Below, piece after piece: positions 1 through 59,877 of a stretch of DNA of 64,000 bases (the first letter of the stretch is position 1; every line of letters starts with the position of its first letter). A model generated the notes under the pieces. That model saw only the letters and a program-made list of their open reading frames with translations. It did no database searches and was not told where the DNA came from. Both the position numbers and the translations under genes were made by a program. This stretch comes from Naegleria gruberi (lineage: Eukaryota): the NCBI GenBank assembly GCA_000004985.1, contig GG738914.1; one strand, given 5' to 3'.

Positions 1-952
1 GATATTTCAATGAATAGATTTGGACTAGATCAAGATATTTATAACAAATTAGAAACCGATATTGATACAGTCATTCATTGTGCAGCCAATGTCAACTTCA
101 TCATGAATTATACTCAACTTGAAGCACGTCAATGTTCAAAGTGTTATTGAATGTTTGAAATTATGTACCTCTCAAAGAATCAAACACTTGCACTTTGTTT
201 CAACTATTAGTGTCATTCCATATTCAATGATTGATCAATATAAGGAGCTGAACAAGCTTGTCGCACAAGATTTCATTCCTCTTTCTCTTCAAAATTTCAA
301 TGACCTTTCAGATGGTTATCCACAATCCAAATACATTGCAGAGCATGCTCTCCGTTTAGCTATGGAACAATGCAACTTTAGTCAATTGAAAATTTACAGA
401 CCTGGACTCGTAGTTGGACATACCATGAATGGATTCAGCAGTGTGAGGGAATGGATTTGTAGATTGATATGTGGATTTGCTCATTTGGGTGAAATTCCAA
501 TTGAATATTCCAAACATGGCATGCAAGTTATTCCAGTCAATTGCTGCGCCAAAGGAATTATTGACCTCATCAATAATCAATCAAAATCCAACACTACAAT
601 TCATCATTTAACCAATTGGAACAAACTCTACAGAACCATTGATAACATCCTGCTAGCCATGAAGAATTTAAATCTCACATGGAAATCCATCCATTACAAA
701 AATTGGATTGAAAATATTCACACACAAATGAATAATGGAAAAATGGAAAAGTTTCCACAAATGACAAAAGAAAATTCGATATTTGGAATTGTACACATGT
801 TTCCACTCGAACATGACATGCTTAATATTGATTCGACAATGGAAGAGCAAATTTGCCAACACGATTTGAGTTATCTTTCGGATGAGAAAGTGGACGATAG
901 AAAGTTAGTGGAAAGGGAAATTGAATTTCTAATTAGAAACAAACAGATCTAA
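1..952 (+). CDS. NAD(P)-binding reductase-domain protein (NAD_binding_4-like; thioester/fatty-acyl reductase family), 5'-partial; apparent +1 frameshift near 128-131
   Basis: Frame 1 (1-150) reads ..LGLDQDIYNKLETDIDTVIHCAANVNFIMNYTQLEAR then stops at 148-150. Frame 2 (119-952) continues NVQSVIECLKLC..HFVSTISV..KYIAEHAL..YRPGLVVGHT. Joined, they reproduce the conserved 'HxAAxVNxxxxYxxLxxxNVxGTxxxLxL' reductase block. No GT..AG intron fits between the frames. Confidence 0.5.
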
Positions 953-1365
953 TGGTTATACAAAATGAAATTGGAATTGCTGTAGAAACTCAAATAAAGT
1001 TAGAACCAAATTCTAGACCTTTCAGATTTTTTATTCGAACAGATACGAAACCTTTCAAAAATCATTATTTAACATTCCAATCTTTTTCAAACAATGCTTT
1101 ACAATGCAACATTAGATCTCATGGATAATAATCATTTCACACCTCAAACAAGGAAAGTGAAAAGGTTGAAATTTGATTGATTTGACACTGGTCGCTTATT
1201 TCAAACCTCATTTGTGAATGTCAAGCTTTTAAATGGGTAATTACAAGGATTATAAGCAAACATGAATGGTTGGATTATCTAAACAGCTCCGCTCAACCAC
1301 TATTCGAAACATTTTTCACACAAGGACAATAAATTATATTATTCGAAAGGTATCTTACTTAAAAA

Positions 1366-4300
1366 ATGACTCAACAAGTTAGTACAACCAACATGTTGCG
1401 TTTAGTCTTGTTTCTACTCTCATTGATGTGTTGTTTGTCCACCATAACACATGCCACAACCATCAATGGTTACACTTTGGATTTGTTCATTGGTGGTAAT
1501 TTTACGAGTGGATTGAAAGTTGCCGAAACTTCACCAACCTTCTCAACCAACAACTTTGAATATCGACTCGTCTATCTGGATAAGAGAAACGGTGATTTGT
1601 ACTATTCTGTTTCAGGAAAGGTTATTCGAAAGCTCGATAAGAATGGAATTGTAACCAATGTGGCAGGAAGCATGAGAAATAATGGTAATTATGAAGATAT
1701 AGCCACCATTCAAGATTATTACTATGCCTTGGACAGAGAATTGATAGATATTGGTGGTTTAATTATTGACACCAAGTCAAATGATATTTACTATTTAAAT
1801 AATGGAATTTATATGGAAAGAATTCGAAACTCTGATAAGAAATCGATTATTGCAGTTGGTTATGGCACCAATAACGAACTTCCCTCTGAAGGATTGGGAA
1901 ATCAAATCAATTTTGCTTACAATTATCCTTCTTACAATAATTACGTTCGTGGACTTGCCATAAATGGTAAGAATGAAATATTTATTGTCCAAAGAAGTTC
2001 AATTTCCAAATATAATATTGGAAATTATAGCGTTACTAATATTTTGACAGATTTTGAACCTGGCACTTATTCACAAATTGTTCTTTCCAAAGACGAAACT
2101 TTTTTGTTTGCCAAAAATGGTGAAGCAATTGATAAGATTTCCATGAATGGACAAGTGACATTTGGTTATACTAGTATTTCTAATTTAATGAGTATTGATA
2201 CTGTTGATAATGAACTCTACATGTTAACTTTAACTGGTGTTTACGTTTTCAGAAACAATTCGAATCAACTTATTGCTGCCGGAAGTTCAGGAAGTTTCGT
2301 CGATGGCATGAATTCTACCAATTTACTAATTAATTATGGTACTACCATGCTTGTTGATGATAATAAGGATATTTACTTGACTGATTTGTATAGTTCTGTA
2401 ATTCTCAAGATTGACCATGCTAGTCAATTGGTCACAAATTTGTTAGCTGTTGAAATTCCAACATCTAGTGAAACAGTTTATTCAGCAAAGAATTTTACTA
2501 GTAGAGGTATTTCACATGCAGTTCATAATAAGGTCAATGGTTTCGTATACATGTGTGATTCGAATGGAAATGTATTCGAATATGACAATAATTTAGTTTC
2601 TCAAAAAGTAACTGGTTATTCCTGTATTGATATTGCTGTAAATTCCCTCGGAGAAGTATACTTCCTTTCTAATTACTTTATTTATCAATTATTAAGCAAT
2701 GGAACTGTTATTACCTTTGCAGGAGATGGAACTTGGGGTGTTCCTATAAATGGAACTTATCTTGACCAAAACCCAGTTGCAGCAGTTAGATTTGGTTTCT
2801 ATTCGAATAATGACATGTTTCTTCAATCCAGTTATTACATTTTCAGAGTTGACCACACAACCAAATTTGTCCAAAAAATTTATTCCTCAACCAATAGTGA
2901 ATTAAGAATTACAATCATCGATCCAGACACTGACAACTTGTACACTTCTGAAGGATCGTCAATTAGTTTAGTTTATCCTAATGGAATTGCCGAAATAGTT
3001 GCTGGAATTAACTCTCAACCAGCAGTTCGTTCATTCAAGAGAAAGATTAGTTTATCCGATGTAGGAGAAGATGCATTCGCCAATTACATTAATCCAACTG
3101 GTATGTCCATTGGAGCCGATGGAAAATTATACATTTCCTATCAATATATGGTTAAGAGACTTGAGAATGGATTGTTATGGACACAGCAATTTGTGGACAC
3201 ACAACAAGGACCTATGAGTGCTGCCTTTATTAGTGATGTGGTCATTTTGGGAAGATTTGGAGATGCAATCATGTTGACGAATCCAAATGGAAATATTTAT
3301 TTATTGAATCCAGTTTCTAGTTTTACCTGTTTTGGTAATTTACCTTCTTCATCAAGTGTTTGTTCAGGTTACGGTTCATGTGTTGGTCCAAATCGATGCA
3401 ACTGTCAAAATACCAACTTTGGTTTCGAATGTGAATATTCCACTTGTTTCGACGTTTCAGGATTCGACTATCAAACTGTTTGTGGAGGTGTCGGTAAATG
3501 TTCCATACAAGATCAATGCTCATGTCCATCTGGATACACTGGCACCACCTGTTCCACACCACTTTACAATATCTGTTATGGAATTTCCTCAAATTCGTCG
3601 AATGTTTGTTCTGGAAAGGGAAGTTGCGTTTCGACTGATTCCTGTAAATGCAATGCTGGAAGAGTTGGAAGTTATTGTCAGTATGAGTTTTGTGCAAGTA
3701 CTTGGAATGCAAATTCTGAAACCTTGACATGTGCTGTTCCATCCTCGAGTTCTGTTGAGGTCAATCAGGAAATTGTGGCTGTCAATCAATTAAGTTCAAA
3801 GGTTTTGAGGTTTAGTAGAACTCCATCAGTTTCTATAACGTTCCCATCTGATTTTTATTCGTATGTGTTAAAGACTTATCCTGAAATTGGTGATCAGTTG
3901 ACAGTTGTTTCTTCCATTTATGATCCAACACTTGACACTTCTCAAGAATTGCTTGTAGTGAGTTCGACTGCTTCAGTTTCTGTCTTTAAAAATACTTCAG
4001 ATATTCTCCCAGTCTATAATCTTCCAAATCCAATTGTCATTCAATTCAACAGCATCAAAATTGACAAGACAGGTGGCAGTTTCAACTATTCCTGTATGTA
4101 TTATGACACTGCATCAAATTCTTGGAGCAGTAGTGGAATTAAGAGTACCATCACATCCTCACAACTTTCCTCTACTTATTACACATTCTCACTCAAGTGT
4201 GAAACCTATCACTTGACATCTTTCTCAGTAATTGACATGAATTATAAAAAGACAAGTCGAGATGACACATTACAATTAGGAGGATTGACTACTGGTGGAA

Positions 4301-6214: not shown

Positions 6215-7018
6215 ATGAAAGCTGTTCGTTGTGTGAATGTTTGTTGCTTGCTCTTGTTAGCAATTGTCTCTGCTATGATGTTATTAGAAACTAGTGTTGG
6301 AAAGGATGTCAAGTTTTGCATGCCTCCACAAGCTACCTTCTGGGAGACTACCAAGGATGCTAGCTATATCATGAAGGAATTCAAAAATAATGATCAGGTT
6401 ATCAAGAACCAATACAATGTCAAGACTTCACAACAACGTCAAGATTTTATCGTAAAAGGAAATGTTGTAAAAAGTGAAATTTCCATTCAAAATCCAATGA
6501 ATAATGATACCATCGTGTATACTCTGACCAGTGACAATGGTGATTGTTCTTGCATGAATTTTGGTCCATCTGATTCCAGTGTTTTTGTACAATGTCACAC
6601 TTTACCAATTTTGGAAAAGGGTAGTATAGCTGGAATTAATGCATTGAAAATTGGTTACAATCAAAGTGATTTGTATCCAACATGGACTGAAATTAATTAT
6701 TATTGGGTTGTTCCTGCTAAGGAAAGTGGATATTGGTGGTTTTTGAGTAGAACTAGTTATGTCATTGATGATTCGAATAATGTTCAATTGGGAACTACTA
6801 CTTATTATAATCAAGAAGATAAGGCTGATCCTTATGCATTCTATCTTCCAAAGTATTGTCCTCATTACTCACAATGTACCAATCCAAGAAAAAATAAACT
6901 GTTTTTGAATGACTTCCATATTTGGCAGTTTACTTGTCAATCACAAGATGAATTAAATTTTGCATTTGATTTAGAAATTTCTGTCCTTCATCAGTTATAC
7001 CATTTGAATAAACATTAA
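6215..7018 (+). CDS. Secreted hypothetical protein (signal peptide MKAVRCVNVCCLLLLAIVSAMMLLETSVG). 3' end uncertain; it overlaps the convergent LRR gene
   Basis: In-frame ATG at 6215 followed by a hydrophobic h-region. The ORF runs to 7018 but the last ~90 nt overlap the minus-strand LRR gene ending at 6930, so the true stop or splice is unresolved. Confidence 0.4.
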   Translation: MKAVRCVNVCCLLLLAIVSAMMLLETSVGKDVKFCMPPQATFWETTKDASYIMKEFKNNDQVIKNQYNVKTSQQRQDFIVKGNVVKSEISIQNPMNNDTIVYTLTSDNGDCSCMNFGPSDSSVFVQCHTLPILEKGSIAGINALKIGYNQSDLYPTWTEINYYWVVPAKESGYWWFLSRTSYVIDDSNNVQLGTTTYYNQEDKADPYAFYLPKYCPHYSQCTNPRKNKLFLNDFHIWQFTCQSQDELNFAFDLEISVLHQLYHLNKH

Positions 7019-8154
7019 GATCAGTCAAACTATTCAATTGACTAATGAAATTTGCTCCCTGATCACGAATGCAGTTATTACCAATGTTAAGCGTAGTCAA
7101 TCTATCCAATCCACTAATGTGTTCAGCTCCTTTTTGTCCAATATTATTTCCACAAATAGTAAGGTTGGTCAACTGTTTCATTTCACTAATATATTGAGCG
7201 CCTTCATCGCCTAATTTGTTATATCCAATACCAAGAGTAGTCAATTGCTTGAGTACACATAAATGTTTTGCACCTTCTTCACTAATATTAGATGTGTAAA
7301 TATAAAGATTTGTGAGTTTGGACATTTCGCTAATATATTTAGCTCCTTCATCACCAACTTTTGTGTTATTAATAGAGATAGGTTAATTGTTTCAAAGAGT
7401 GAATGTGTTTAGCACCTTCAACTCCAATATCATTGTTACTAATGTTGAGACTAGTCAATTGATTCATTCTACCAATGTATTGAGCTCCTATATGACCAAT
7501 ATTATTCGAAAGGATGAGCAGTGTGGTTAACTGGTTGAGTTGACTAATAGATTTTGCTCCTTCATCTCCAATTTCATTTTCTGATATTTCGAGATATCTT
7601 AGTTGTTGCATATTACCGATATACTTGGCTCCCCCCATATCGATAGGATACAAATACCCACACATATCAAGATGAGTCAATTGATTCATTTTGCTAATGT
7701 ATTTAGCACCTTCATTACCAAAATCATTGGCAGTAATATCAAGAATTCTTAATTTCTTCAGTTGACTAATGTGTTTTATATCTTCACTACCAAGATTGTT
7801 ATAATGAATATCAAGAACAGTCAACTGCTTCATCAATTCCAATATTTTACAATCAAATTTAAAAGATAAATCTCTATTTTCCACTTTTAAAGTTACAATA
7901 TTTTGTAAAAATTGACCTTTCACCATTCTATCATTCCTACATATTACCGAAAGTTTACATCTTTCTCTAACAATTTTCAACCACTGTTTTGAAACTAGTG
8001 CACAACTCATTGCAATAAATTTAAAATCATCGGAATGAAAAGATAAAATCTCTCCGAGTATATCATCATCAATAACATGATGAGAATTATTCATTGTATT
8101 GAGTGTCGATACCTCTGCAGCAGCAGAAGGGTTGCTTGTTTGTTGTTGGCCCAT
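6930..8154 (-). CDS. F-box / leucine-rich-repeat (RNI-like) protein, interrupted by an apparent 1- or 2-nt indel near 7362-7370 (possible pseudogene or assembly error)
   Basis: ATG at 8154 (MGQQQTSNPS). F-box-like ILGEILSFHSDDFKFIAMSCALVSKQWLKIV. Tandem ~24-aa LRRs xLxxLxxLxISxNxIGxEGAKxIS in ORFs 7369-8154 and 6930-7325. These join seamlessly (..LKQLTYL|SINNTKVGDEGAKYISEMSKLTNLYI..) if 'ctctat' were 'ctctctat'. Confidence 0.6.
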
Positions 8155-17405: not shown

Positions 17406-18149
17406 ATGCAAGGAAGAACGCTACTGCTTTTCACGCTCATCCTTTTATGTGTGCTAGCTTATTGTTGTGTAGAGAATGTTACTGCTGAATCATGGGGAAG
17501 TTTCTTGAGTCAATCTATGCAAGTTACAAATGGTAAGTGGAGTGTAATTTGACATTTTGGAAGAATTAAGCATTATGATCATTATTCATATTTAGGAAAA
17601 TTATTTTCATCATCAAAAAGATCACAAGTTGTTTGTCCTCCAAATACCTTTGGAAGTAAATGTAATAATAAGGTGAATCTCCCAGATACATATCCTCTCA
17701 AAAAAGGTCCGTTAATGATTGGCCAGATGGAGATTAATGATGGAAATTCTTATTCATGCGAGTGGACTATTTTTGTTTTAGAATTTAATCAAAGTTTTAG
17801 TTATCCCTGTTTTTTTGTCGTAGCCGATACAACTGTTCCACCAATCAATTACACTCTAACCTATTCAGTGTGGTCTGCAGGTTTCATAATTTTTTCAAAG
17901 GATGTTGTGTTTATTGATGGGATAATTCCAACATTGAATACTAAGGTGACCTACATGGGTGATTTCAATTTCTTGATTGACAAACCAATGAGCTGGGATG
18001 ATTCTGCCAACACATGCCAAGTTGGAATAGTTCAACAAAAGATTTCTTCATTGCAAGAACTTTCAAAGTTGAAAAACTTAACTACATTTGACATTCCTTG
18101 CAATTCATCTTCAACAATCAAGGTTCCATATTTTGGATATCCTTACTAA
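17406..18149 (+). CDS. Signal-peptide-bearing protein, two exons (17406-17532, 17596-18149). Possibly the 5' part of the downstream giant EGF protein gene
   Basis: ATG at 17406 gives MQGRTLLLFTLILLCVLAYCCVENVTAESWGSFLSQSMQVTN with a GTAAGT donor at 17533. A 63-nt AT-rich intron ends tatttag at 17595. Phase-1 junction is in frame with ORF 17673-18149. Confidence 0.45.
17533..17595 (+). other. Predicted spliceosomal intron (GTAAGT...TAG, 63 nt)
   Basis: Canonical donor directly after the signal-peptide exon. The acceptor restores the frame into the long ORF. Confidence 0.5.
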
Positions 18150-18183
18150 GATAGTGTTTTCCTATCATAATTTAAAATATTCA

Positions 18184-21100
18184 ATGTATGATAATTATAT
18201 TCAAGAAAGAACCTTAATTGAATACTTTCCAACATTTTTTGCAAATCTTGGAAACACGACAGACATTAGCATTTCAAACTCTGATAGAATTATCTCTTTC
18301 TATAGCATTGTGAGTTCTAACATTCCTGTTTTGAAATGCAAAGTCCAATTGAGTCTAGGAAATTCTCTCACTACCCTATTCGAATCTAATTGTTCTTCCT
18401 TTTTGAACTTTACCCATTCACTCACTCAATACAGCACCAATACGAATGCCTCCATCATAGTCACTCTCTCAAATCAAGAATACATGTTTGAAGAAAGTGA
18501 AACTTTTGACATGAATCTATCAAATTGTTCTCAGTGTCAAAATGGAATTTGTCGATTGTCTCAAAGTAGTATTGATGGTTCAACTCATTGCGAATGCTCA
18601 GGCTTGTTTGAAGGAGAATTTTGTCAAGAGTGTAAAGATGGTTTTGTCAAATTATCGGACAAGTGCGTTTGTCCGAATGGTTATCAACAAATTGGTTTTG
18701 GCTGTGTCTTTGTTAGTAGCTCAAACGCCACTTCCTGTTTTGGATATAGTGTCAAAGAAGGTGATCGTGCATGTTCTTATCATGGAATTTGTAATTTGAA
18801 TACTCATTTGTGTGAATGTAGTGAAAACTTTGATGGTGACAGATGTTCAACATGTAAGACAGGTTACACTGGTTCAAAGTGTGATATTCCAATTTGTCAT
18901 GATGTGAGTGCCATCGATTCAACTGTTTGTAATTCCAAAGGTGATTGTGTAGCACCTGACAGCTGTCAATGTAATGCAAATTATTATGGACCTAATTGTG
19001 CAAGCTTTAAATGTAATGGCATTGAAAAGAATAATGCTTTAGTTTGTTCATCACATGGTACATGTTCCAATGCTGATGTATGCACTTGTTCCTCAAATTA
19101 TGATTCGTCCACTTTCTGTTCAAAATGTCTTCCTTCCTACAATGGAACTGATTGTTCCATAAAAATTTGCAGCCCAGAAACCACTTGTAGAGGCCATGGA
19201 CAATGTAACGATCAATTACAATGTATCTGTAATGGAAAATTCACAGGCACCTATTGTGAAAAGTGTTTAGATGGTTGGGTTGGCAGTAATTGCGACATTA
19301 CTTGTTCTGCACAGACAACTTGTTCTGGAAAGGGAAGTTGTTCATCAACTGGATCTTGTATCTGCTCGGCAACTTCCTATGGAGATCATTGTGAGAATTG
19401 TAAAGATGGTTGGTATGGAGCTAATTGCGACTTTAGAATAGATTTTACATCTTTTGAATTTAATGAGAATGGTGATTCGATTAGTGCTTCTGTAAACTCT
19501 GTCATGAAGAAGAATATCAACTGTTCATCGCTCATTGTAAACACTGAAGTGTTAGGACAAGGTGCAACTTGTGTATTGGATGGTGATAAGAGTTTATTGA
19601 TCATTAATCTTGGCACCTTGGCAACTATTGTCATTAATGGAAATCTCATTATCAGAAACTACATTGACAGCAAATTAACAACCAATGCCAAAGTGTCAGG
19701 AACTTTCTATCAAAGAGTTGATCCTGTCGCCTCCTTGACATCTGAAAAGTCTGTCATTGGTTGTGGAACAATGTTCTTGGATGCTTCTTCATCCACTTCA
19801 TTGGACAGAAGAAGATTGTTATTCACATTCTCTGCAGTCACAGCTCCAAATAATCAAGCCTTATCAAACCTTAATAATCTCATTTCTGGAAATAGTGCAA
19901 GTACTGTCAAATTCTCAGTGAATAATTTTACAGGTGGATCTTATTCTGTTCAGGTTGCTGTTCAGAGCACATTCTCTGGTAGAGTTTCGTATGCTACGTT
20001 TGCATTCATGGTGACTGATGCCTCCCCACCAAATTTGAGTATTAAGAATGGTGTTTCGAGTACTGTGACTATTGGAAACTCATTTGTGGTTACACCAATT
20101 GTTTCATTCCCTTCATGTTATTCTGGTTCTGCTTTAATATCTAATCTGAAATTTACCTATACTCAAGTTAGCGGTGCTGCACTCCAGATTAAACAAAAGA
20201 ATGAATTGTTGGTGTTTAGTTCAGATTATACCAAGTTGACTGAAGAAGGTAAATATGTATTTAGTTTGAGTGCTGTTGAACAGGGATATCCAGGAGCATC
20301 CATCACATTCGAAATCATCGCAGTAGCCCTTCCATTGAAAGTTTCGTTCAATATTCGTGACATGTCTCAATCCATGGAAGATAAAATCTCGTTTACAGTA
20401 CTCAAACAGGATCCAAGTAATCCAGATGATGCAAGTGGACAAGTAGCTCTATCTTGTGTCAATATGGAAACTTTACAAAGTTGTGATGGTTTCGTCCAGA
20501 ATGGTGCAAATATTGATCAGACCACTTTGTTATTTAACCAAAAGTATGGACCTGGCGTTTATTTGTTTACTGCTGTGTACACCAAGGGTTCGAGATTCTC
20601 CTCTTCCAAAGTTAAAATCACTGTCACAAGTCAATCGAAATCATCCTTCTTGAGAATATACATTAATACTCCTTCCAATATTGATCTGACCTCAGTTGAC
20701 CCATCCACTTATTTAATTCTTCAAGCACAAAGCATCGACTCACTAAGCGTTCAAAGAATCTACTCATGGACAACTGATTTTGATTCCTCCTCCACCTCCT
20801 CATTGGATCTCAACAAGAAATACTTGTCCATTCCAAAGAGTTTACTTGTTCCTGGTGCTTCTTACACAGTTTCTGTTAAGGTTGTGGATGGAGCAAAGGT
20901 AGGTGAGGGAGTTATTTCATTTGTGGTCAATTCGCCTCCAACATTGGGAAGTTTGGAAATTAATCCATCGACAGGTGTTGCCCTCACTGATGAATTTAAG
21001 GTTTCATGTGGAAATGGGTGGTCGGATGTTCAACTCCCGCTGACCTTCAAGTTTTTGTACAGACTTCAAGGAGATGTGTTCTGGAAAGTATTGAAAGAAA

Positions 21101-22344
21101 GATCTGAAACGAGGTCTTTCAGTACTGTCATGCCAAGTGGACATATAGAAATCAAATCCATTGTCTATGATGCTTTAGGAGCCGCCACAGAAACAACACA
21201 AATCATTCAAGTCACTAATCCAGTTGACATTACATCAGCCGTTCAATCTTTGAATGCTATTAGTACTTCTTCAGTCACTTCCTCTTCGACCTCATCTGCA
21301 TTGAGTGTTATTCAATCATTGAAACCTCAAACTCAAGAAGAAAAGCAAAAATTGAGTGAAACTGGATCAAAGATTGCAATTGCCTATTTTTCACAGATAG
21401 AAAAGGAAGAAACCGTCACTTCCCAAACAGTTTCATCAACAGCCTCTTCAATTTCTGTTATTTCATCCATCAGTACTTGTATTTCAAATCTGCCTGAAAG
21501 CACAGTCAGTTTTATCATTACTAAATTCAAGTCAACTGTCGATGGCGCCAATTCAAAGCTTAATTTACCAGATGAAGATATTGAATCATCATTCAACAGT
21601 GCCACCACCATTCAATCCTATGTTGTCAAAAATGGAGAAAAGAGGGCAATCTATGTCTTCTCCAAAGTTGATATTACAATGTTAGATCAAATTAAGGAAA
21701 CTCTTGTTAACCTACAAGTGAAGAATTTAGTTGCAGACATGCCTGCTGCTAGAACATTCGGCACAGATTACTATTCATATATGAGATTAATGAGCGTTTC
21801 GTCTTTGAGTAATTTGAATGATACAATCAGTTCAGAATCTTCATTCTCTCTCAGTCAACCATTCAGCACACTATCACAATTTTCTAATTTGGATACTGTT
21901 AAACTTGTGATGAAAGTCCAACAACAAAACGAAAGTGTTACCAAACTTTTCTCATTCAAGGTAGTTTCTACCAATACTGAAATACCAATCAGTTCTGATT
22001 CAATTGCTGAACTCACCATTGAAAATAATGATGGAGTTGTACAAAATGCTGCCACTTACGAATGCAAGATTTTACAAAATGGACAATTGACATCATTGTC
22101 CTCATGTGTGATTGTTTCACACTCTGCAACCAGCTTTACAGTTAGGGTTCCTTCAACTGGTTCTTATGCAATTGTGGCCAATGTTAAGAAAGATGTTATT
22201 GTTGACATATTGTCAGAAGATAATTTGAAATATCTTGCTTTCCTATCATTGATTGTTCCAATTGTTGTGTTGATTGTCATTGTTTTCATTGTTGTGGTTT
22301 GTGTTATTAGAAAGAGAAAGAGAGCAAAAGTTCAAGGTGTTTAA
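18184..22344 (+). CDS. Very large type I membrane protein with ~12 EGF/tenascin-type repeats, a long S/T-rich extracellular region, C-terminal TM and basic tail. 5' end unresolved (frame open from 18088)
   Basis: First in-frame ATG at 18184 and no signal peptide of its own. EGF repeats CxCxxxFxGxxCxxC x12 (e.g. CECSGLFEGEFCQEC, CNGKFTGTYCEKC). TM LAFLSLIVPIVVLIVIVFIVVVCVI followed by RKRKRAKVQGV and stop. Confidence 0.65.
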   Translation: MYDNYIQERTLIEYFPTFFANLGNTTDISISNSDRIISFYSIVSSNIPVLKCKVQLSLGNSLTTLFESNCSSFLNFTHSLTQYSTNTNASIIVTLSNQEYMFEESETFDMNLSNCSQCQNGICRLSQSSIDGSTHCECSGLFEGEFCQECKDGFVKLSDKCVCPNGYQQIGFGCVFVSSSNATSCFGYSVKEGDRACSYHGICNLNTHLCECSENFDGDRCSTCKTGYTGSKCDIPICHDVSAIDSTVCNSKGDCVAPDSCQCNANYYGPNCASFKCNGIEKNNALVCSSHGTCSNADVCTCSSNYDSSTFCSKCLPSYNGTDCSIKICSPETTCRGHGQCNDQLQCICNGKFTGTYCEKCLDGWVGSNCDITCSAQTTCSGKGSCSSTGSCICSATSYGDHCENCKDGWYGANCDFRIDFTSFEFNENGDSISASVNSVMKKNINCSSLIVNTEVLGQGATCVLDGDKSLLIINLGTLATIVINGNLIIRNYIDSKLTTNAKVSGTFYQRVDPVASLTSEKSVIGCGTMFLDASSSTSLDRRRLLFTFSAVTAPNNQALSNLNNLISGNSASTVKFSVNNFTGGSYSVQVAVQSTFSGRVSYATFAFMVTDASPPNLSIKNGVSSTVTIGNSFVVTPIVSFPSCYSGSALISNLKFTYTQVSGAALQIKQKNELLVFSSDYTKLTEEGKYVFSLSAVEQGYPGASITFEIIAVALPLKVSFNIRDMSQSMEDKISFTVLKQDPSNPDDASGQVALSCVNMETLQSCDGFVQNGANIDQTTLLFNQKYGPGVYLFTAVYTKGSRFSSSKVKITVTSQSKSSFLRIYINTPSNIDLTSVDPSTYLILQAQSIDSLSVQRIYSWTTDFDSSSTSSLDLNKKYLSIPKSLLVPGASYTVSVKVVDGAKVGEGVISFVVNSPPTLGSLEINPSTGVALTDEFKVSCGNGWSDVQLPLTFKFLYRLQGDVFWKVLKERSETRSFSTVMPSGHIEIKSIVYDALGAATETTQIIQVTNPVDITSAVQSLNAISTSSVTSSSTSSALSVIQSLKPQTQEEKQKLSETGSKIAIAYFSQIEKEETVTSQTVSSTASSISVISSISTCISNLPESTVSFIITKFKSTVDGANSKLNLPDEDIESSFNSATTIQSYVVKNGEKRAIYVFSKVDITMLDQIKETLVNLQVKNLVADMPAARTFGTDYYSYMRLMSVSSLSNLNDTISSESSFSLSQPFSTLSQFSNLDTVKLVMKVQQQNESVTKLFSFKVVSTNTEIPISSDSIAELTIENNDGVVQNAATYECKILQNGQLTSLSSCVIVSHSATSFTVRVPSTGSYAIVANVKKDVIVDILSEDNLKYLAFLSLIVPIVVLIVIVFIVVVCVIRKRKRAKVQGV

Positions 22345-26099: not shown

Positions 26100-26938
26100 T
26101 CAATTATCTTCTGGTGGATCTAGATCAATAATATCTCCAACAATATCAAAAATCTGTCTTGCATCATCTCCATAAACAGAGAAGAAAATCTTACTAAACT
26201 CCTCTTCAAATTCATTATCATTAATCTTTGTTCCAAGAACCTTTTCAAGTCCTAAATTCAACGAAAATAGCTTGGTTGCCTCAATATTCGAATATGTACT
26301 TATTGATTGATCCACCTTCCTAACCAGTGGCATATCCCACTGTCTACAACTTGCTTTTTGATTATCCATTTCTGAACTAATCAGTGGAATCACCTCTGCC
26401 GTCAAGAGACTATGCTCCTCCTCAAGTTCAAGTGATTGTTTCACATAGGGAATTACAAAATTCACTTTCCTAGCCAATGCATGTTTAAAACTCGGAAATG
26501 ATGTATCAGCTCTCTGATAGAATTTCAATGTAGTATTAACCAATTCATCATCATCACTAGCTCCCACACCAGAAAATCCTATATTATTATTATGTGTGAT
26601 GAAGTCCTTTTGGATGAATTATGATCACCAATAAAAAGAACAGGAGTGTTGTTAGATGATGAAGTTACAAATCTATTCATTTGCCTAAATAATTGATTCC
26701 TCTCTTCAACATCCTCAGCGTCCTCAGTTTTATCGTCCTCACCGTAGAAATTATTATTATTAAAATTAGTATTTTGAATAATGGCAGCAGAAGGTGGCTG
26801 TCTACTAGTAACTTCTAAAGTAACATCTTCACCCTCTGTTAGTGCATTGCCCGCATCAGTTGATACATCATCTTCATCATCATCCATAAGATTAATCACC
26901 TCGTGCTCATTGGATGCCTGCTGCATATTTTTCATCAT
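26100..26938 (-). CDS. Hypothetical acidic protein. Two ORFs (26579-26938, 26100-26567) that become one continuous reading frame if the A4 run at ~26600 were A5
   Basis: ATG at 26938 (MMKNMQQASNEHEVINLMDDDEDD). Upstream frame ends ..SSKRTSSHIIII*. Downstream frame opens FIQKDFITHNNNIGFSGVGASDDDELV. Inserting one A in 'tccaaaagg' gives ..HNSSKKDFITHNNNIGFSG... No GT is available for an intron. Confidence 0.45.
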
Positions 26939-38434: not shown

Positions 38435-40916
38435 TTAACCAATTGTTTCATTATCAAATAATTTCTCTAATTCCCTTTGAAAATCTTTCATTAAAATTGG
38501 TTTTTTTAATACCAAGTCGAATCCAGATTCTAGTAATGATTCATCACTCCCAAACATTTGCAGTTACTGCTACAATCTTGCATTTTCTCTCCTTCTCAAT
38601 TGACCTAATGAGTTTGCAACATTCCTTTCCACAGATAATTGGCATTAGTAAGTCCAATAAGATTAAATCAAAATTCATTTCCTTTTTGAATGTTTCTAAA
38701 GCTTCTAATCCATCACATGCTGTTTGAGAATTAAATCCAAGATTGTTTGTCATTTTCTGTAAAACTTTTCTATTGACTTGGTTGTCATCAACAACAAGAA
38801 CCTTTTTGGAATGAAAAATTGAATTAGAATTGGAAGGAGCAATTGATGTGAGTTTGGTTGATGAAATTTTAGAGTGGATTGTGGTAATAAAGTGTTCAAT
38901 TCGAGTAGGTAGGTAAATGTCAGATGTTGACAATTGAGAGGAATGCCTGAGACTCGTAGAAATAATTATAGCATTCGTAGTGATTGGACTAAATGATTCA
39001 ATAGTAAATATTTTTGAATTAGATGGGTAAAATATCAGAACTTTTGATTGTGGAAGGGTATTTGATTGGAAATATTTTGGAATATTTCCAATAACATCAT
39101 TTAGAGATTTCAAAGTATTAACTTTCATCGAATTTACATTTGGATAGATGGATCTACACAGTTGCTCTAAAGAATAGGATAAATTATCATTCTCTTCTAG
39201 AATTAAAACTTGTCTGATTGAAAAGTTCTTAATTTCCTCAATTTCCTCAGAAATTCTTGAATCAATTTTCGCAATTTGAGACATGTTACATTTCTTTAGA
39301 GGAATGTAGATTGTTACTTTGGTTCCAACTCCAATTTCACTCTCAAAATTGATTTTTCCATTCATTAGCTCAATGAATTGATTCGAAAGTGATAAACCAA
39401 TTCCATGGCTTTCGTGGAATGAGCCTCTATTTTGATTAATAACAGAATAAGAGTAATACCTTTCAAAATCCATAGATGCACCATCAACAGTGTGAAATGG
39501 TCGGAATAAATTACGAATATCTTTTGTTGGTATTCCAATACCAGTATCCTGACAAGTTACTTTCAAACATATAAATTCCTCCGTATCAATAATGCTCCTT
39601 CCCTCTAAGAATGGATAATCTTCATCTGTTTTATCACAAACTGTGCAATTCAACATAATACTTCCTTTTTTAGTGTATTTGACAGAATTAGAAACAAAGT
39701 TGAGCAAGATTTGTGACAATCTAACATGATCTCCTATCAAATATAGTGGAACCTTATTTAAATCAAGAACAGATTGCAGCATCAGTCCTTTTTCTTTGGC
39801 TAAATTTGTGAAAACTGACAATATTGAATCAGTCAATTCTAAAATATTAAATGGAAAGTTGTTGAGCTTAATTTTACCAAGTTCTAAGTTGCTAATCTGA
39901 AGATAGTTCGAAAATACATCCATGAAAATCTTGGAATTGCTTTCAATATCATGTAATAATTCTAATTGAGCCTTCAAGTCGTTTTGCAACCTAGTGACAA
40001 ACTTTCCAAAACTCTCTATTTTCAATCCCACCAAATTTTGTAAAGTTTCCGAAATCTTTTTCATATCTAGTTGCATTAATTCAACAGTAACCAAAAGTCC
40101 ATGTAATGGATTTCTCAACTCATGAGACAAATTGGAAATAAATTTCGTCTTGGATTTGTTCATTTCTTTTTGATTGTAAAGAGCAATTCTGGAATTAATG
40201 GTTTCATCGTATTGTTGTTCCACTAAATCTTCATATACAAATCCAATAAATATGGGAGTGCTGAATGCTATGATCGGTTCCAACAGTTTGATTATTCTAT
40301 CTCTGTTCGAATCCCAAATATGTTGAAATACGTAAGGTGTTTGCCTTTCTAGATGCGTTAAGGTAAAGAACTTGCCTCCATTTCCTAAATGTTTCGAACT
40401 ATACTCAAAAGCAAGGTACTGTGCAACAATATTCGAAATGAAAATAACCAGGAAGTTCAATATCAACATTTTCTTTCTAAAATAGGAAGTATGAGTCAAG
40501 GTCAACAAGGCATACATATTTATCAACCAGATTGGAACTTCCCTTCCCAAATAAACCTGCATGGTCAATCTGACCATCGCATTTGCCACAGTTTTGGCTA
40601 AATACCCAAATTCCAAAGTATTCAAATGATTCAAATCTTTGCTCTTCAACACTGCTCTACCTGCAATTGCATTCACAATCAAATCAATCGCAACAAGTAT
40701 CAAGAAATTCACTCTCTCAATAAAATTCTCAATCCAAAATGAACAAATCAGAAGAATCATGACGAAATATCCCAAAAAAACTGGAGCCATTCGTTGTTGG
40801 ACACTATTAATCTTCATTTTGAATTTGATATTGTCCATGCATCTTCCCTGTTGCTCCTGCTTAGCAAAAAGATTCGGAAGAATTTGAGAAAGCTGTTTGG
40901 CGTAGTAATTGACCAT
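38435..40916 (-). CDS. Membrane-anchored hybrid histidine kinase (multi-TM sensor region, HisKA, HATPase_c, C-terminal receiver). An apparent 1-nt indel near 38568-38578 truncates the receiver domain
   Basis: ATG at 40916. H-box LSHELRNPLHGLL. N/G boxes (NSVKYTKKGSI, DTGIGIP, GIGLSLS). Receiver VLVVDDNQVNRKVL...DLILLDLLMPIICG...IVAVTAN, then stop. The +1 frame immediately continues MFGSDESLLESGFDLVLKKPILMKDFQRELEKLF, the canonical receiver C-terminus. Confidence 0.75.
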
Positions 40917-41136
40917 TTTTTTGTGATGTTGAGGAGATATTGAACATCATGATGAATTATTTACATATCATCCTACATCGTCTTCGGTTTTGATCCATAT
41001 GATATAATTTTTTCTAAATATTCATAATCTCTTTGATGATGAACTTCATAAAGAAAGACTTAGTAGTATGGACGGCAGGTTATCTCATAAGGCCAGTTTT
41101 CATTAGGATAAAGAGATGAATGATGATGAAGTATTT

Positions 41137-41200
41137 TTTTAAAAAAATAAATATCCCTAATGACGGAAATAAGTGGTAGTTTGCAAAAAATCGAGGGGTA
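41137..41200. repeat. Left arm of an inverted-repeat pair (partner 42861-42900)
   Basis: tttttttaaaa..atccctaatgacgg..(16-19 nt)..tgcaaaaaa here. The reverse complement of 42861-42900 reads agattttttttaaaatccctaatgacgggatttacccctgaactgcaaaaaa. Confidence 0.35.
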
Positions 41201-42860: not shown

Positions 42861-42900
42861 CAGGGGTAAATCCCGTCATTAGGGATTTTAAAAAAAATCT
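42861..42900. repeat. Right arm of the inverted-repeat pair
   Basis: caggggtaaatcccgtcattagggattttaaaaaaaatct. Shares a 14-nt perfect core with the left arm in inverted orientation. Confidence 0.35.
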
Positions 42901-43385
42901 ATTAAATAGATTAACAACATATGATATTGGAATTAATTTTCATCCGAACATTCAACAAGAAAGCATAGGTCATGCTAACAACAATATTGCTGGAAATTTT
43001 TGTTAATTATTTTTCATAAATAATAAATCTATTCAATTTTCATCAAACTTACCAATTTCAAATAATCTCATACTGATATTATAATAACATTTAATTGGCA
43101 TGAATCTCAGTAGGCACCATATTTTACCTTGCCTTCCAAAAACAATGTTTACCGCCAAAAAAAATGAATATAATCTACAGCACACGACAACACATTACAA
43201 GCCTAGGGGCATCTGTTCTGGGCCAATTCAATGATAATCGGTGATGGGTGAATGATTGCAAGCAGGACAATGGAGAGTGACTGAAAAACAACCCAAGCAT
43301 TTACCAAATTAAAAAGAAATTCCAACACAATAAGCCGTACTCCCTCTACGGCTCCTCTCCTTGTTGAAATTCGCATTTGTTTGTC

Positions 43386-45302: not shown

Positions 45303-45315
45303 GACGAAACACAGT

Positions 45316-45738
45316 TTACTTTTTGAGAATATGATCTTGCATTGCAGAGGCAATTCTTCTAGCCTTACTCAATGCAATGAATCCATGACTAATTTCAATA
45401 GAGGATGAATTATTCATTATCAAACTAATGATACCACCATTCTCACCATTAACTGTAGAAGAAGTGTCAACTGCAACTGTTACATCTTTAATGTCAGCCA
45501 AATTATATTCCTCAGTAGATTCTCCACAACTTCCAAAAATACTTCCATAATTATGAACAACCAATAATTGTTGTTCCTCATCAATGGAATAGTCGGTTGA
45601 TGTTTGTTTGAGAGCAATGCAAAGGAATGGACATCCAATGCATGGACAAATAAAACAACAGACACATCCAACCATTCCAAAAATATTGGCCATAGTGTTT
45701 GGCTCGGCTTTGATGAAGAAGTTATTGTTGTTTGACAT
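45316..45738 (-). CDS. Small Cys-rich membrane-associated hypothetical protein
   Basis: ATG at 45738 (MSNNNNFFIKAEP). CC/CxC-rich hydrophobic stretch GMVGCVCCFICPCIGCPFLCIAL. 140 aa. Confidence 0.4.
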   Translation of the reverse strand: MSNNNNFFIKAEPNTMANIFGMVGCVCCFICPCIGCPFLCIALKQTSTDYSIDEEQQLLVVHNYGSIFGSCGESTEEYNLADIKDVTVAVDTSSTVNGENGGIISLIMNNSSSIEISHGFIALSKARRIASAMQDHILKK

Positions 45739-45999
45739 TTTTTTTGATTTTTGGTTGTTGATGAACTTTTGTGGCTATTTCAATCATTGCGCATGGAACT
45801 TTATTCGAAAGGGCACTTTGCTGACAAAACGTGTTCTTCACATATTGTTCAAGTCTTCTTTGAAAATATCCAAACAATCCTATTTTTTGATCAATTTTTG
45901 TAAACATTTGAAAAACATCACAATTTATCTAATTTCCATAATTGACAAATTTCCAAATCCAAAAGGCATTAGCAAATTGAAAAATTCCATCTTTAAAAA

Positions 46000-46575
46000 A
46001 TGTACACTCCTTCCATCACTGAAACCATCGAAAATCCACCACCAACATCAAAACCAATTAGTGGTGGAAGCAATGCAACCTTCGAACCATCATCTTCAAC
46101 ACCCTTCTCACCAACTGAACATGCAGTACAATTACAATATCCTCCACCAGAATCAAAATCAAATCCTAGTGATACTTATATAAGTGAACAGGTTCCTGTT
46201 TCGAAACCTGTTACTGCACTCATTGAGCCACCAGAATTAAAACCAGCAGTGGCTGCATCTGGTCAACCATCAAGTAATTCACCTCCCAAGACAGATATCA
46301 AAGATCCAAAAAGTTTACATCTTCCACATCTTCATGTACCTTCAATGTTTCATGATAAATCTGATCCTATTCATAAGGTTAATGAATATGATGTTGATGG
46401 AATAAGGCAGAGAAGGCTTATTTATGGAGCTGTATTGGATCGCTTTGTTTATGTCTGTTTGGATGTTGGTGCATTCCTTGGATACCTTTCGTATTTGTCC
46501 ATACGAAATATTCCAGAGCAACAAGTGCTAGAGCTAGAAGATATTCTCAGTTGGCTAAAATTACTTGGATTGTAA
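46000..46575 (+). CDS. Hypothetical P/S-rich protein
   Basis: ORF with ATG start (MYTPSITETIENPPPTSKP). Low-complexity N-terminal half. Coordinate taken from the ORF track. Confidence 0.4.
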   Translation: MYTPSITETIENPPPTSKPISGGSNATFEPSSSTPFSPTEHAVQLQYPPPESKSNPSDTYISEQVPVSKPVTALIEPPELKPAVAASGQPSSNSPPKTDIKDPKSLHLPHLHVPSMFHDKSDPIHKVNEYDVDGIRQRRLIYGAVLDRFVYVCLDVGAFLGYLSYLSIRNIPEQQVLELEDILSWLKLLGL

Positions 46576-47274: not shown

Positions 47275-47741
47275 GAGTTTCGAATAGTTTCAATTTTTTT
47301 TATTGTTGATTTCGTCGGTATGCAAATCTGGTGTGAAGGTAAAAGGAAATGTTCTTTTTGTAAATTTTCTTACAATGGAAATCGATCATGAGTGCAGGAG
47401 GATTCTGTCGCTGATGCTAAACTTTCAATTTGTGTAGAAACTCCTTTCGAATTGTTATCCTAAACTTTTTGTATCGAGCATGATCTTTCTTGAACCTTAA
47501 TCTCAATCATTCAACATCTTTGTTAACGGTTTCAATAGTTTCCTTATTAATCTTTCAATATATTTGAAGTTTCCAATAACAAACAATGTTTACAATATCT
47601 AATTAGAAACCTAAGGAGTCAATTTTTTTAATGTGCTTCCACTCCTAGCAGAACTTTCAGAATCTCCGGTAAATTATGTAATCAGAACATCNNNNNNNNN
47701 NNNNNNNNNNNNNNNNNNNNNNNNNNNNNNNNNNNNNNNNN

Positions 47742-48165
47742 CGGTTTATTAGACAAGTTGACTTTTGACAGAGTCATTTTCACAGGACATTCTCAAGGAG
47801 GTGCCGTCGCCATGCTATCCATCTATGATTTCCTCTTACACTATCCTAAATACTCCTCCAAAATTGAGTTAATCACTTTTGGTCAACCAAGAGTAGGTCA
47901 ATCAAACTTTATCGAAAAATTCAAACAAATTCTTTCCCCGCCAAAATATACTCGTCTCGTTACAATTTTTGTAAATAAAGACGCAAAAGGAAATGGAAAA
48001 AGCGTTGGTGAAGATTTGGTCTCTCAAGTTCCGCCGCCATTTCTTGGATTTAAACACGCGGGAAGTAAGGTAAATGTTGTGTGCACTGCGTTGAGTATTA
48101 CAAAGTGTCATGATATGAATACTTATTTGGATGGTGTTAAGGCTGGAAAATATGTTGAGAATTGA
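47742..48165 (+). CDS. Class-3 (fungal-type) lipase, C-terminal part only. The 5' end lies in the 47693-47741 N-gap
   Basis: FTGHSQGGAVAML (GHSxGG nucleophile elbow), ITFGQPRVGQ (lipase_3 motif), then ..DGVKAGKYVEN and stop. Confidence 0.6.
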
Positions 48166-48236
48166 GTTGTTTGAATTAATTTTTGAAAATATACGAAAGG
48201 TCTGTAATAAAAATTAATTTAAATTTTTCAAAAAAA

Positions 48237-50018
48237 ATGGAGGTCGAATCTGAAGAATTATTCGAATCATTTTTTTATTATTCAAAATCGGAGAAAATTC
48301 AACAAGTAATTTTACACGAAAATCAATTATCACCACTCGGATCAGATGTTATGCAATTAATTCTTTCCTTTCTGCAACCGATTCCTTTCTTATTTCAACT
48401 AAAACGAGTTTCGTCTAATTGGAATAAGTTATGCGAAAGTTGCATGAAAGAAAGTTGTACAGAATTATATTGGGATGAAAAAACAGCAAGTTCTCTACTT
48501 GGAAATCTAAAGAAACATGCAAAAAAGTTGTGGCAATTTCCAGAATTTTATGAAGATGAAAATTTATTAACAAATTCAAAATCTGAATCAGAAAGTACTT
48601 TTGAATTTGTAAAGAATTCAATAATGCTGCCATTTAAAAGTGGAAATTCAATTGAATACATGATGTTTGGATTGTTTAGGAGTGTATTATTCAAATTTGG
48701 CAAGTTGAGCTCACTAATTTTACATAATGTTAAGGTGAATGCTGGATTGCTTTATTTATTATTTGTGGAATGGGGAAAGGAGTTGGAACGAATCAAATTC
48801 ATTAATTGTATTGTTGATTTTGGTTTGCCGAAACAAATTACTTGTCAAGATGATGTCAATTCCCATAATAGTTATTGGCTTGTTTCAGATTTGAATCAAA
48901 TACAGAGCTTGAAATTTGAGATTCCAAGTCAATTACCTGATCTTACAATTCAAAAAAGTCTTTTAATTGAAAATTTGAAGAAAGCCAAGATGAAAGATAT
49001 CTCATTTAGCAATTGTTCAATTGATAGATCACTTGTTTTGAATCATACGCATGCTTCTCACTTTTCTCTGGAATTAATGTGCTTTTTTTCATCAATTGGA
49101 AGTTTGGAAACTGCTTATTATGATTGTTTTGAATTTAATGAAACTTTTGATCAAGACAGGACCTTCTTTAAAAAGCTTGTGCCAAATGTCAAGTTTAATA
49201 TTCCATTCTTCCTTGCAGTTAAGCAACTGTTGGACATTTTACCATTTGAAAAAGTTGTAGAATATTTCAAATTTGACATGGAACGTAATTATTCGTTAGT
49301 GAAGAATAGAATGAATGCTTATCAAAAGAGAAAAATACGAAATAAGGAAGAATTAATCAATTTTTACTATGAAGTTTTTCCCTCATTTGCATCATTCCAT
49401 GTTAGGTGCTCTCCTTTTATATTTGATTTATATTACAAAGATTATAGAGGATTCAACATGCTTCAATCGATATTGTCTTCTATTTATTTTAGTAGAAAAC
49501 ATCAAACTCATCTGCTTGATTTCATTTTTGATTATTTTTCTTTTTACAATGAAGATACAAACTCTGTAAAAGAAAGTACTGAGATTTTAAATGAATTATT
49601 TGCATCAAATAATCGAGTGGACGGGAGAAATTCGACCTTTATTGTAATTTCATATGAACTGACATTCATGTTTGAAAAGATGGTTAAACATAAAGTTCAT
49701 TTCAATGCCAAAGATAGAGAAGGATCAACCATAGCTCATTATCTAGCTCAGGTAGGAAATGGTTCAACATTACAAAAATTAATTGAGATATTGGACAAAC
49801 TACCAACTGTGGAAGAGAGGAAATACTTTTTAGATTTAAACATTCCCAATAATCAAGGACAAACTGCAGCTATGATTTGTTACAATGAGAAGAAATTTGA
49901 ATTATTGGAATATTTGATGCAAATTGCTCCAAGATATGGAATTCTTGCTGCAAATGGCATGCCATTACAAAAAGATAATGTTTCAGTACTGGAACAACAG
50001 TCTTGCTCTTTAATGTAA
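48237..50018 (+). CDS. F-box-like / ankyrin-repeat protein
   Basis: ATG at 48237 (MEVESEELFESFF). F-box-like DVMQLILSFLQPIPFLFQLKRVSSNWNKLC. C-terminal ankyrin-like repeats (GSTIAHYLAQVGNGSTLQKLIEIL, NNQGQTAAMICYNEKKFELLEYLM). Confidence 0.5.
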   Translation: MEVESEELFESFFYYSKSEKIQQVILHENQLSPLGSDVMQLILSFLQPIPFLFQLKRVSSNWNKLCESCMKESCTELYWDEKTASSLLGNLKKHAKKLWQFPEFYEDENLLTNSKSESESTFEFVKNSIMLPFKSGNSIEYMMFGLFRSVLFKFGKLSSLILHNVKVNAGLLYLLFVEWGKELERIKFINCIVDFGLPKQITCQDDVNSHNSYWLVSDLNQIQSLKFEIPSQLPDLTIQKSLLIENLKKAKMKDISFSNCSIDRSLVLNHTHASHFSLELMCFFSSIGSLETAYYDCFEFNETFDQDRTFFKKLVPNVKFNIPFFLAVKQLLDILPFEKVVEYFKFDMERNYSLVKNRMNAYQKRKIRNKEELINFYYEVFPSFASFHVRCSPFIFDLYYKDYRGFNMLQSILSSIYFSRKHQTHLLDFIFDYFSFYNEDTNSVKESTEILNELFASNNRVDGRNSTFIVISYELTFMFEKMVKHKVHFNAKDREGSTIAHYLAQVGNGSTLQKLIEILDKLPTVEERKYFLDLNIPNNQGQTAAMICYNEKKFELLEYLMQIAPRYGILAANGMPLQKDNVSVLEQQSCSLM

Positions 50019-50045
50019 TTAATGAAGAGCAATTTTTTGATCTAT

Positions 50046-51121
50046 TTAAAAGAGGCCACCAAAAACAGGGCCTTCTTCCTCTTCATCTACTGCTATGGCA
50101 ACGAAACTAGGGTGTTCTTGGTCCTCTTCATCGACTACTACTCCTTCATTTGGAGATTTGAAAATATTGTTAGCATTATCAGTTGGGGAAAGCTTGTTTA
50201 CAATATTCTTCATTCCAAATTTGTTACAAGCACACAAGAGTGCTTGTTTGGTATCTTCATCCAATTTACTTCCAATAATTCCATAATTTAATCAAGTATA
50301 TGTGAAAAAATTAATGGATTACAATCAATGAAATAAATTGGATCATCAAACTGTTTTGAAGCTGGTGTTTGATAACATGGATATTCACCATTGAACATTT
50401 TCTTAAACAAGTTATCAGGTTCTTGTTGATTGGAGGTGAAATCTCCCAACGAAACTGTCATTATAGTTCCTCTCACATTCAAGTGAATTGGTTTGTTGCT
50501 ATTTTCGAGCTTTTCTCTTGCCAATACTTGATTTTCAAATTCGTTCATTCTAGTTTCCAATAATTCTTCTTTCTTTCTAAATTGGTCTATTAATTGTTGT
50601 TCAAGGGATGCCAATCTATCTTTTGAAACAGTCAATAATTGTTCATTTTCAGTTTGTAATGCTGCCATCCGTTCCAGGTGTTCTCTTTCCAATTTACTCT
50701 TGAATTCTTCGACTTGTTGATATGCTTCATGGAGTGGACAGTACTTTTCTTGATGGTCTTTCAACTCACCTCTCAATACAATATTCTTACACATGCCACA
50801 CTTGACTTTCAATTTATCCAACATGTTTCGAATAGTTTTGGCACTTGCTGCACAATTCTTCTTGAATCCACCTTCGTTACACAATGGACAAACCGTTACA
50901 TTCTCAATACATTTGGCACAGAAAGTATTTCCGCATGAATTATGGGAAATTGGATCCACGAAAGGATGTAAACAAATAGAACAAATTAAATCTTCATCAA
51001 TTTCCTTCTCTACATAATCGAATAGCACTTCTTCTTTCTCCTCCTTGATCAATGGTGTGTTGGAGGAAGTTATTGACGAGTTGGCTATTAGCTTGCGTTG
51101 TTTGAGTTTTTTTAACCCCAT
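50046..51121 (-). CDS. RING-finger / TRAF-type zinc-finger / coiled-coil / BTB(T1, KCTD-like) protein. An apparent 1-nt deletion in a T-run near 50285-50290 splits the BTB domain
   Basis: ATG at 51121. RING CSICLHPFVDPISHNSCGNTFCAKCIENVTVCPLC. TRAF-zf-like KCGMCKNIVLRGELKDHQEKYCPL. Coiled coil. T1-like IHLNVRGTIMTVSLGDF...YFIDCNPLIFSHILD, then stop. The -1 frame continues LNYGIIGSKLDEDTKQALLCACNKFGMKNIVNKL (T1 C-terminal consensus). 'gatTTaaat' in place of 'gatTaaat' would fuse them. Confidence 0.6.

Positions 51122-59318: not shown

Positions 59319-59877
<559 letters not shown>

Follow-up and report, generated by a model that had tools for sequence, protein, structure and literature searches.

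Six genes near a telomere-like array of Naegleria gruberi NEG-M each carry a single frame break, possibly as recent loss-of-function alleles

The current study deals with a stretch of 64,000 nucleotides (nt) from the draft genome of Naegleria gruberi strain NEG-M (contig GG738914.1, assembly GCA_000004985.1), hereafter called the window, in which six protein-coding genes each contain one break of the reading frame. The NEG-M assembly is a Sanger draft of 40.9 Mb made from a strain isolated in 1969 (PMC9928731, Table 1), and the GC content of the window is about 33%. When 20 open reading frames (ORFs) of the window were looked up, 14 matched exactly entries named "predicted protein [Naegleria gruberi]" (EFC377xx/378xx), which belong to a scaffold of 233,110 bp. 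The genes are densely packed, and most of them contain no intron. Between 1 and 54 kb a total of 27 protein-coding genes was counted on the basis of ORFs, Pfam matches and exact look-ups, and six of these (22%) are broken. Five gaps (runs of N) lie in the last 17 kb of the window. The six break sites, designated S1 to S6, are situated 10-60 kb from its telomere-like end (Table 1).

A preliminary description of the window had listed six genes with exactly one frame break each, and both statements were borne out. All six breaks are real in the sequence and were found a few to about 25 bases from the positions first given for them, and each gene carries exactly one lesion followed by a clean downstream ORF. 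The whole window was scanned for pairs of same-strand ORFs in different frames, using codon-usage log-odds trained on the intact genes of the window, and only these six junctions scored as strongly coding on both sides. A seventh candidate, the overlap of 45593-46180 and 45997-46572, was discarded, as it represents two genes on opposite strands. The further claim that conserved domain sequence continues across each break holds for S1, S2, S4 and S5, where it follows from Pfam profiles, orthologues or repeat periodicity, whereas at S3 and S6 the continuity is one of codon usage. Four of the six lesions (S1, S2, S4 and S5) could be sized, and three of these four are deletions of more than one base (2 nt at S2, 2 nt at S4 and 4 nt at S5).

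Table 1. Position of the six affected genes, their frame breaks and the telomere-like arrays in the window.
Feature	Position	Strand	Evidence
NRPS-like (non-ribosomal peptide synthetase-like) reductase gene, 3' part (thioester-reductase / NAD_binding_4)	1..949	+	Pfam, orthologues P0001-P0003
S1, one extra base in CAA-C-TTG-AAG	118..121	+	profile continuity, orthologue spacing
F-box-like / LRR_6 (leucine-rich repeat) gene, 24-residue repeats	6933..8154	-	Pfam LRR_6 and LRR_8 on both pieces
S2, 2 nt missing	7372..7382	-	repeat periodicity, three-frame view
EGF/REJ type I membrane protein gene	17406..22344	+	REJ and EGF domains downstream; exon/intron structure
S6 zone, net +1 (or -2) nt; lesion placed to zone only	18082..18146	+	codon usage
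Orphan acidic protein gene	26103..26938	-	coding log-odds
S3 zone, net -1 (or +2) nt; holds A4 run (TCCAAAAGG)	26582..26618	-	three-frame view
Hybrid histidine kinase gene (HisKA, HATPase_c, receiver)	38438..40916	-	Pfam; alignment to N. fowleri P0005 and to L001
S4, 2-nt (GA) deletion, GAGAG to GAG against independent strain	38544..38553	-	L001 comparison
RING / coiled-coil / BTB_2 gene	50049..51121	-	Pfam, homologues, L004
S5, 4-nt deletion (GGTT, between two TT, i.e. microhomology), removes conserved Trp codon	50288..50293	-	L004, homologues
(TTTGGG)n telomere-like array, 88 copies, runs into gap	60413..60943	+	repeat count
Second (TTTGGG)n array, 76 copies, to window end	63545..64000	+	repeat count

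The two sites that could be compared with an independent strain are S4 and S5. That strain is represented by five contigs (L001 to L005) of one Illumina metagenome (ERZ929261, run ERR1078381), which were found via cluster mates in the European Nucleotide Archive (ENA) and share about 96-99% identity with the window (98-99% for the most part). In the kinase gene the final 36-40 codons lie in a different frame, and the receiver domain, which covers profile positions 1-79 of 111 before the break, extends over positions 1-107 once the frame is repaired. At S4 the metagenome contig reads GGGAGAGTG against GGGAGTG in the window; in its wider context it is in frame with GTTTGGGAGAGTGATGAA (V W E S D E) against GTTTGGGAGTGATGAA, so that the in-frame form at 38546 is GAGAG. 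The N. fowleri protein is also colinear through the break.

For the RING-BTB gene, five homologues retain the tryptophan of the motif ILDWLxxG, and the window encodes ILD|LNYG. The metagenome contig carries GATTGGTTAAAT where the window has GATTAAAT, and is in frame across S5 with CTTGATTGGTTAAAT (LDWLN); the in-frame form at 50289 is GATTGGTTAA. Its product (P0141, 379 aa) is intact, is identical to the repaired window protein at 353 of 358 residues, and ends on the same residue. Paralogues of this gene carry pentapeptide and TLDc parts, both of which are absent from the window gene. Since P0141 is intact and matching, the short RING-BTB architecture is genuine, and only the 4-nt deletion is peculiar to NEG-M. 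At the start of the same gene (about 51107), directly after the annotated ATG, NEG-M has A7 and the metagenome strain A6. The ATG at 51121 is in frame in NEG-M, and the ORF of the metagenome strain extends 21 codons further upstream.

The reductase is encoded in frame 1 from 1 to 117 and in frame 2 from 119 to 949. Positions 69-106 of the NAD_binding_4 profile are matched in the first frame and positions 109-258 in the second, and after repair these merge into a single match of 120 bits (positions 69-258). Orthologues from N. lovaniensis, N. fowleri and Willaertia magna share the motif NYxQL(K/R)xxNV with a spacing identical to NYTQ|LKHVNV in the window. Because the profile and the orthologue spacing run colinear through the break, the window has a net gain of 1 nt at S1, and the frame (QLKHVNV) is restored by dropping C118, one T of 119-120, or G121. 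The F-box/LRR gene is split into the ORFs 7372-8154 and 6933-7382. Its repeat units measure 72, 72, 78, 72, 72, 72, [70], 72, 72 and 72 nt, and the 70-nt unit among units of 72 nt indicates that 2 nt are missing at S2. Most simply, this lesion is a contraction of (CT)3 to (CT)2 in TATCTCTATT.

At S3 and S6 each flank has one frame that scores as coding (+0.22 to +0.34 per codon), and its other frames give strongly negative values. The acidic protein gene consists of the ORFs 26582-26938 and 26103-26618, with log-odds of +0.34 and +0.32 in different frames; profile and homology searches with it gave neither a Pfam match nor a homologue. In the EGF/REJ gene, exon 1 (17406-17532) encodes a signal peptide and is followed by an intron (17533-17595), after which the remainder is coding with the frame break, scoring +0.22 per codon upstream and +0.24 downstream of it in different frames. 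The model of the Joint Genome Institute (JGI) for this gene (P0148, 226 aa) comprises exons 1 and 2 and terminates at the stop codon of the S6 frame break. The downstream ORF starts 35 nt past that stop, ends with a C-terminal transmembrane (TM) segment and has no signal peptide of its own. It is most parsimonious to take the two pieces as one gene, of which the upstream part supplies the signal peptide. No homologue was found for S6 or S3 in a word-indexed search, and a full HMMER search of 1.8 billion representatives with the N-terminal part of the S6 gene returned only its own 226-aa model, so that the lesion cannot be placed by homology.

Other attempts to find related sequences gave no result. 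Homology searches with chimeric queries, built from the repaired junction peptides and then from neighbouring ORFs, returned neither N. gruberi self-matches nor near-identical sequences, apparently because clusters holding proteins of the window itself are not displayed. A scan of JGI metagenome contigs with the junction peptides detected no relatives, and none of ten guessed annotator gene models for S1, S2 and S3 (fake-intron versions and ORF fragments) was present among the known protein sequences searched. A 30-aa JGI "cluster mate" (P0144) was rejected as spurious, since it sits on bacterial contigs.

The comparison with the metagenome strain also provided a measure of constraint, given here as the ratio of non-synonymous to synonymous differences per site (pN/pS). 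The kinase gene differs between the strains by 20 non-synonymous and 5 synonymous changes (pN/pS 1.06), and the RING-BTB gene by 4 and 1 (pN/pS 0.95, a value built on five changes, which weakens it as support for relaxed constraint). Nine intact neighbours taken together show 51 non-synonymous and 117 synonymous changes (pN/pS about 0.1, individual values 0.00-0.33; Fisher p = 3e-6). The kinase and RING-BTB genes are thus the two least constrained of the 11 genes compared, and a rough hand estimate gives a chance of about 0.01-0.02 that randomly placed lesions would fall in both of them. Total divergence of the kinase gene (1.47%) and its ratio of transitions to transversions (15:10) equal those of its neighbours, which gives no sign of low-quality sequence. 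Of six amino-acid changes in the kinase that were polarised by N. fowleri, five are derived in NEG-M.

The remaining coding insertions and deletions (indels) between the strains all preserve the frame (3, 3, 3, 3, 6, 3 and 2+1 nt), with one exception in the metagenome strain itself. There, 22 nt are missing from NAEGRDRAFT_74488 (window 1508-1529, L002 at about 298), and the frame is broken just past the signal peptide. This gene is intact and strongly constrained in NEG-M (pN/pS 0.08), and the 22-nt deletion has no flanking direct repeats. A truncated and rearranged copy of the F-box gene is found on L005. The metagenome strain therefore has frame-breaking lesions of its own, pointing to a similar lesion density under another technology. 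A call of a 1184-aa DUF676 protein on L003, where small indels cluster at 35019-35133, was not accepted as a further frame break, because the prokaryotic gene caller had run through the 5' region and tRNA-Gly. In 2.5 kb of aligned non-coding DNA there were 28 indel events, 25 of them not multiples of three, against 30 substitutions, and stop-creating changes make up 4% of the substitutions in the compared ORFs. Given this high share of indels and low share of stops, the occurrence of six frameshifts and no nonsense mutation is no argument for sequencing error and agrees with what genuine mutation would produce.

Taken together, these results suggest that all six breaks, or at least most of them, are genuine and very recent loss-of-function indels of the NEG-M lineage, possibly heterozygous, a reading to which we assign a probability of roughly 0.55. 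The recency of the lesions is indicated by the single lesion and the clean downstream ORF in each gene. That the lesions are present in the DNA of the organism rather than in the consensus, and by which mutational mechanism they arose, is what we infer from these comparisons. The affected genes (LRR, hybrid kinase, RING-BTB, EGF/REJ, NRPS-like reductase and orphan) would be dispensable, fast-evolving or lineage-specific, and none of the six is further than about 60 kb from a telomere-like array. The indels may have originated by replication slippage or by microhomology-mediated deletion at short repeats such as (CT)n, (GA)n and TT..TT. The predicted kinase product would lack the last part of the receiver domain with its conserved Lys-Pro, the truncated RING-BTB product would have an interrupted BTB fold, and the EGF/REJ ectodomain would be severed from its signal peptide. 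Such null alleles are perhaps heterozygous and hence sheltered; Naegleria has been described as a mostly clonal heterozygous diploid, and NEG-M has been reported to be heterozygous (PMC9928731). As a milder novel reading than recoding (see below), null alleles may accumulate towards the chromosome ends as a result of such sheltering.

Strain-specific null alleles and young pseudogenes in subtelomeric, fast-evolving families are familiar from yeast strains, from the subtelomeres of Plasmodium and trypanosomes, and from plant LRR genes. The window resembles these systems in its single small indels at short repeats, in the multigene-family or orphan nature of the genes, in the intact copy of a close relative, in low constraint and in the adjoining telomere-like repeats. 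It differs from them in that none of the six genes has a second lesion, and in that the lesions are known from draft sequence. The literature was searched for Naegleria frameshifts, pseudogenes and subtelomeres, and for PRJEB11402, and no earlier description of such lesions in Naegleria was found. Of the two explanations offered in the preliminary description, a subtelomeric cluster of young pseudogenes is the one favoured here, given the TTTGGG arrays at 60.4 and 63.5 kb, the intact kinase and BTB genes in a strain of 98-99% identity, and pN/pS values near 1, although consensus error of a non-homopolymer kind retains a part of the probability.

Several observations weigh against recent gene loss. 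Broken genes make up 22%, a high proportion even for a subtelomeric region, and all six indels are known from the draft consensus alone. One lesion per gene, followed by a pristine ORF of up to 1,400 codons, would equally fit a low and uniform error rate. The independent contigs span only two of the six sites (S4 and S5). Moreover, the kinase gene shows one indel per 25 substitutions, compared with nearly one per substitution in neutral DNA. This scarcity of indels indicates that its ORF was kept under selection until very recently, and its pN/pS of about 1 may therefore reflect fast evolution rather than decay.

The alternative with the most in its favour, which we consider possible but less probable, is that the breaks arose in the assembly or consensus of the Sanger draft and that the genes are intact in the organism. 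Artefacts could stem from base-calling indels in thinly covered stretches or from mis-merged haplotypes differing by in-frame indels, and the reported heterozygosity of NEG-M (PMC9928731) would permit merging artefacts of 2 or 4 nt. The situation resembles that of frameshift artefacts in draft assemblies: isolated indels stand in otherwise perfect ORFs with full coding potential on both sides, gene models are truncated or split, five gaps interrupt the final 17 kb of the window, and the near-identical strain is in frame at both S4 and S5. The single extra base of S1 and the A4 run in S3 are likewise compatible with error. The other explanation of the preliminary description, systematic homopolymer indel errors, was not upheld, since the platform is Sanger, which has no systematic homopolymer error, unlike 454, Nanopore or PacBio. 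Slippage-prone contexts do exist in the form of the CT run at S2, at most a TT at S1 and the A4 at S3, but S2, S4 and S5 are deletions of 2, 2 and 4 nt at short repeats or microhomology and not homopolymer slips, and clean deletions of this size are atypical of base-calling. Furthermore, no gap lies closer than 2.5 kb to S5 or within 9 kb of any other site, substitutions are not in excess and mismatches are not clustered near the lesions in the S4 and S5 comparisons, and the lesions of the two comparable genes fall in the least constrained genes and not at random. For Sanger drafts of about 8x coverage, six indel errors per roughly 40 kb of coding sequence would require an error rate above 1e-4, which counts against draft error.

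Two further explanations were considered. It is very unlikely that the breaks are short or non-canonical introns that escaped recognition or, at S6 and S3, boundaries between two neighbouring genes. JGI does treat the upstream part of S6 as a stand-alone protein, and S3 offers one candidate intron (GTGAGG..ATATAG, 164 nt), but its donor is weak and splicing would delete 161 nt of strongly coding-like sequence, and an EGF/REJ ectodomain with a TM segment but no signal peptide makes a poor separate gene at S6. At S1, S2, S4 and S5 the homologous protein is contiguous through the break, leaving no space for an intron. Three real introns are present in the neighbourhood (two in 9162-9241 and the one at 17533-17595), with lengths of about 40, 46 and 63 nt, GTAAGT donors and (A/T)TAG acceptors, and the last of these is confirmed by the annotated protein P0148, which is spliced exactly there. 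A GTAAGT donor occurs at none of the six sites, and every formal GT..AG rescue deletes coding-like or homologous sequence, in agreement with the earlier statement that no intron can restore these frames. Least likely of all is recoding, in which programmed ribosomal frameshifting, or RNA editing by insertion or deletion, would yield full-length proteins from the broken genes. As in the +1 frameshifting of Euplotes and the mitochondrial insertional editing of Physarum, many genes would be affected with one break each, and coding continues in another frame in intact, coding-like downstream ORFs; at S4, a +1 shift on GAG-TGA would even give WEDES, resembling WEDEE of N. fowleri. However, the shifts needed at S1 to S6 disagree (+1, -2, -1 or +2, -2, -4, and +1 or -2), no slippery motif common to the six contexts was found, and the genes are nuclear. 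At S1 the homology switches frame 30 nt ahead of the stop codon, which excludes shifting at the stop, and the 24-residue repeat would be disrupted if a +1 shift took place at the stop of S2. Nor are the sites conserved, as the frame is uninterrupted in the sister strain at S4 and S5 and in the orthologues at S1. We know of no recoding system like those of Euplotes or Physarum in heteroloboseans, and if true, recoding would represent an unrecognised nuclear capacity in this group. The probability left over by these explanations falls to mixtures of them.

For users of the reference proteome it is relevant that at least two of the public NEG-M gene models are truncated and cover only part of a longer gene. 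EFC37858 / NAEGRDRAFT_53514 (277 aa; 50288-51121) is annotated as complete but covers only part of a gene of about 359 aa, for which the called ORF in the sister strain has 379 aa. The 226-aa P0148 (17406-18149) is likewise annotated as complete but probably forms the upstream portion of a gene of about 1,600 aa. Should the lesions be artefacts, the result only draws attention to local errors in a reference that is widely used. NEG-M has been kept for decades in axenic laboratory culture. If the lesions are real, about one fifth of the genes in this subtelomere would be freshly inactivated. Such a case would offer a limited glimpse of how gene families turn over at chromosome ends, and perhaps of how environmental-sensing genes are lost in a strain that was isolated in 1969 (PMC9928731). 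The phenomenon is of a known type and belongs to ordinary biology with no new mechanism, and general understanding is unchanged under either outcome.

The metagenome contigs also revealed structural differences between the strains. L005 matches the lipase and F-box genes (47550-49319) and past 49319 diverges fully into another BTB gene, and L004 is colinear with the window from 49448; the divergence of L005 is explained by structural variation, by a paralogous locus, or by the metagenome containing a second strain. The same contig supplies about 440 nt of Lipase_3 coding sequence across the gap of 50 N at 47692-47741. In the aligned blocks between 27557 and 51716 synonymous divergence from the metagenome strain is a mosaic, with values of 0.04-0.05 in most genes; the RRM, kinase, lipase and RING-BTB genes have values of 0.006-0.015. 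The intergenic regions 29810-30206 and 51122-51716 contain no substitutions at all, the former having a 12-nt indel at about 30153. This pattern looks like recombination between diverged haplotypes.

Both TTTGGG arrays have the same orientation and are separated by a gap of 1.8 kb and about 780 nt of AT-rich unique sequence. We know of no published telomere repeat of N. gruberi. The presence of two arrays on one scaffold suggests an interstitial copy, or two chromosome ends that were scaffolded together. The ORF 59319-59876 encodes the N-terminal half of an actin (Pfam Actin positions 2-176 of 410, E = 6e-73) and abuts a 50-N gap about 500 nt before the first array; actin does not resume past the gap. 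Either the chromosome end carries a truncated copy of actin, or the scaffolding is at fault here.

The remaining observations concern other parts of the window. A micro-exon of 36 nt between the two introns in 9162-9241 encodes a GPLGTLG-like motif. The interval 40950-43370 (2.4 kb, from the kinase gene to an RGS gene) contains neither a coding-like ORF nor a Pfam match, which is unusual in such a dense region, and could be an old decayed gene or an intron-rich one. Four tRNA genes are located on the plus strand (16715-16795, 16878-16958, 22488-22568 and 35204-35274), with the identities Ser-TGA, Ser-AGA (twice) and Gly-GCC.

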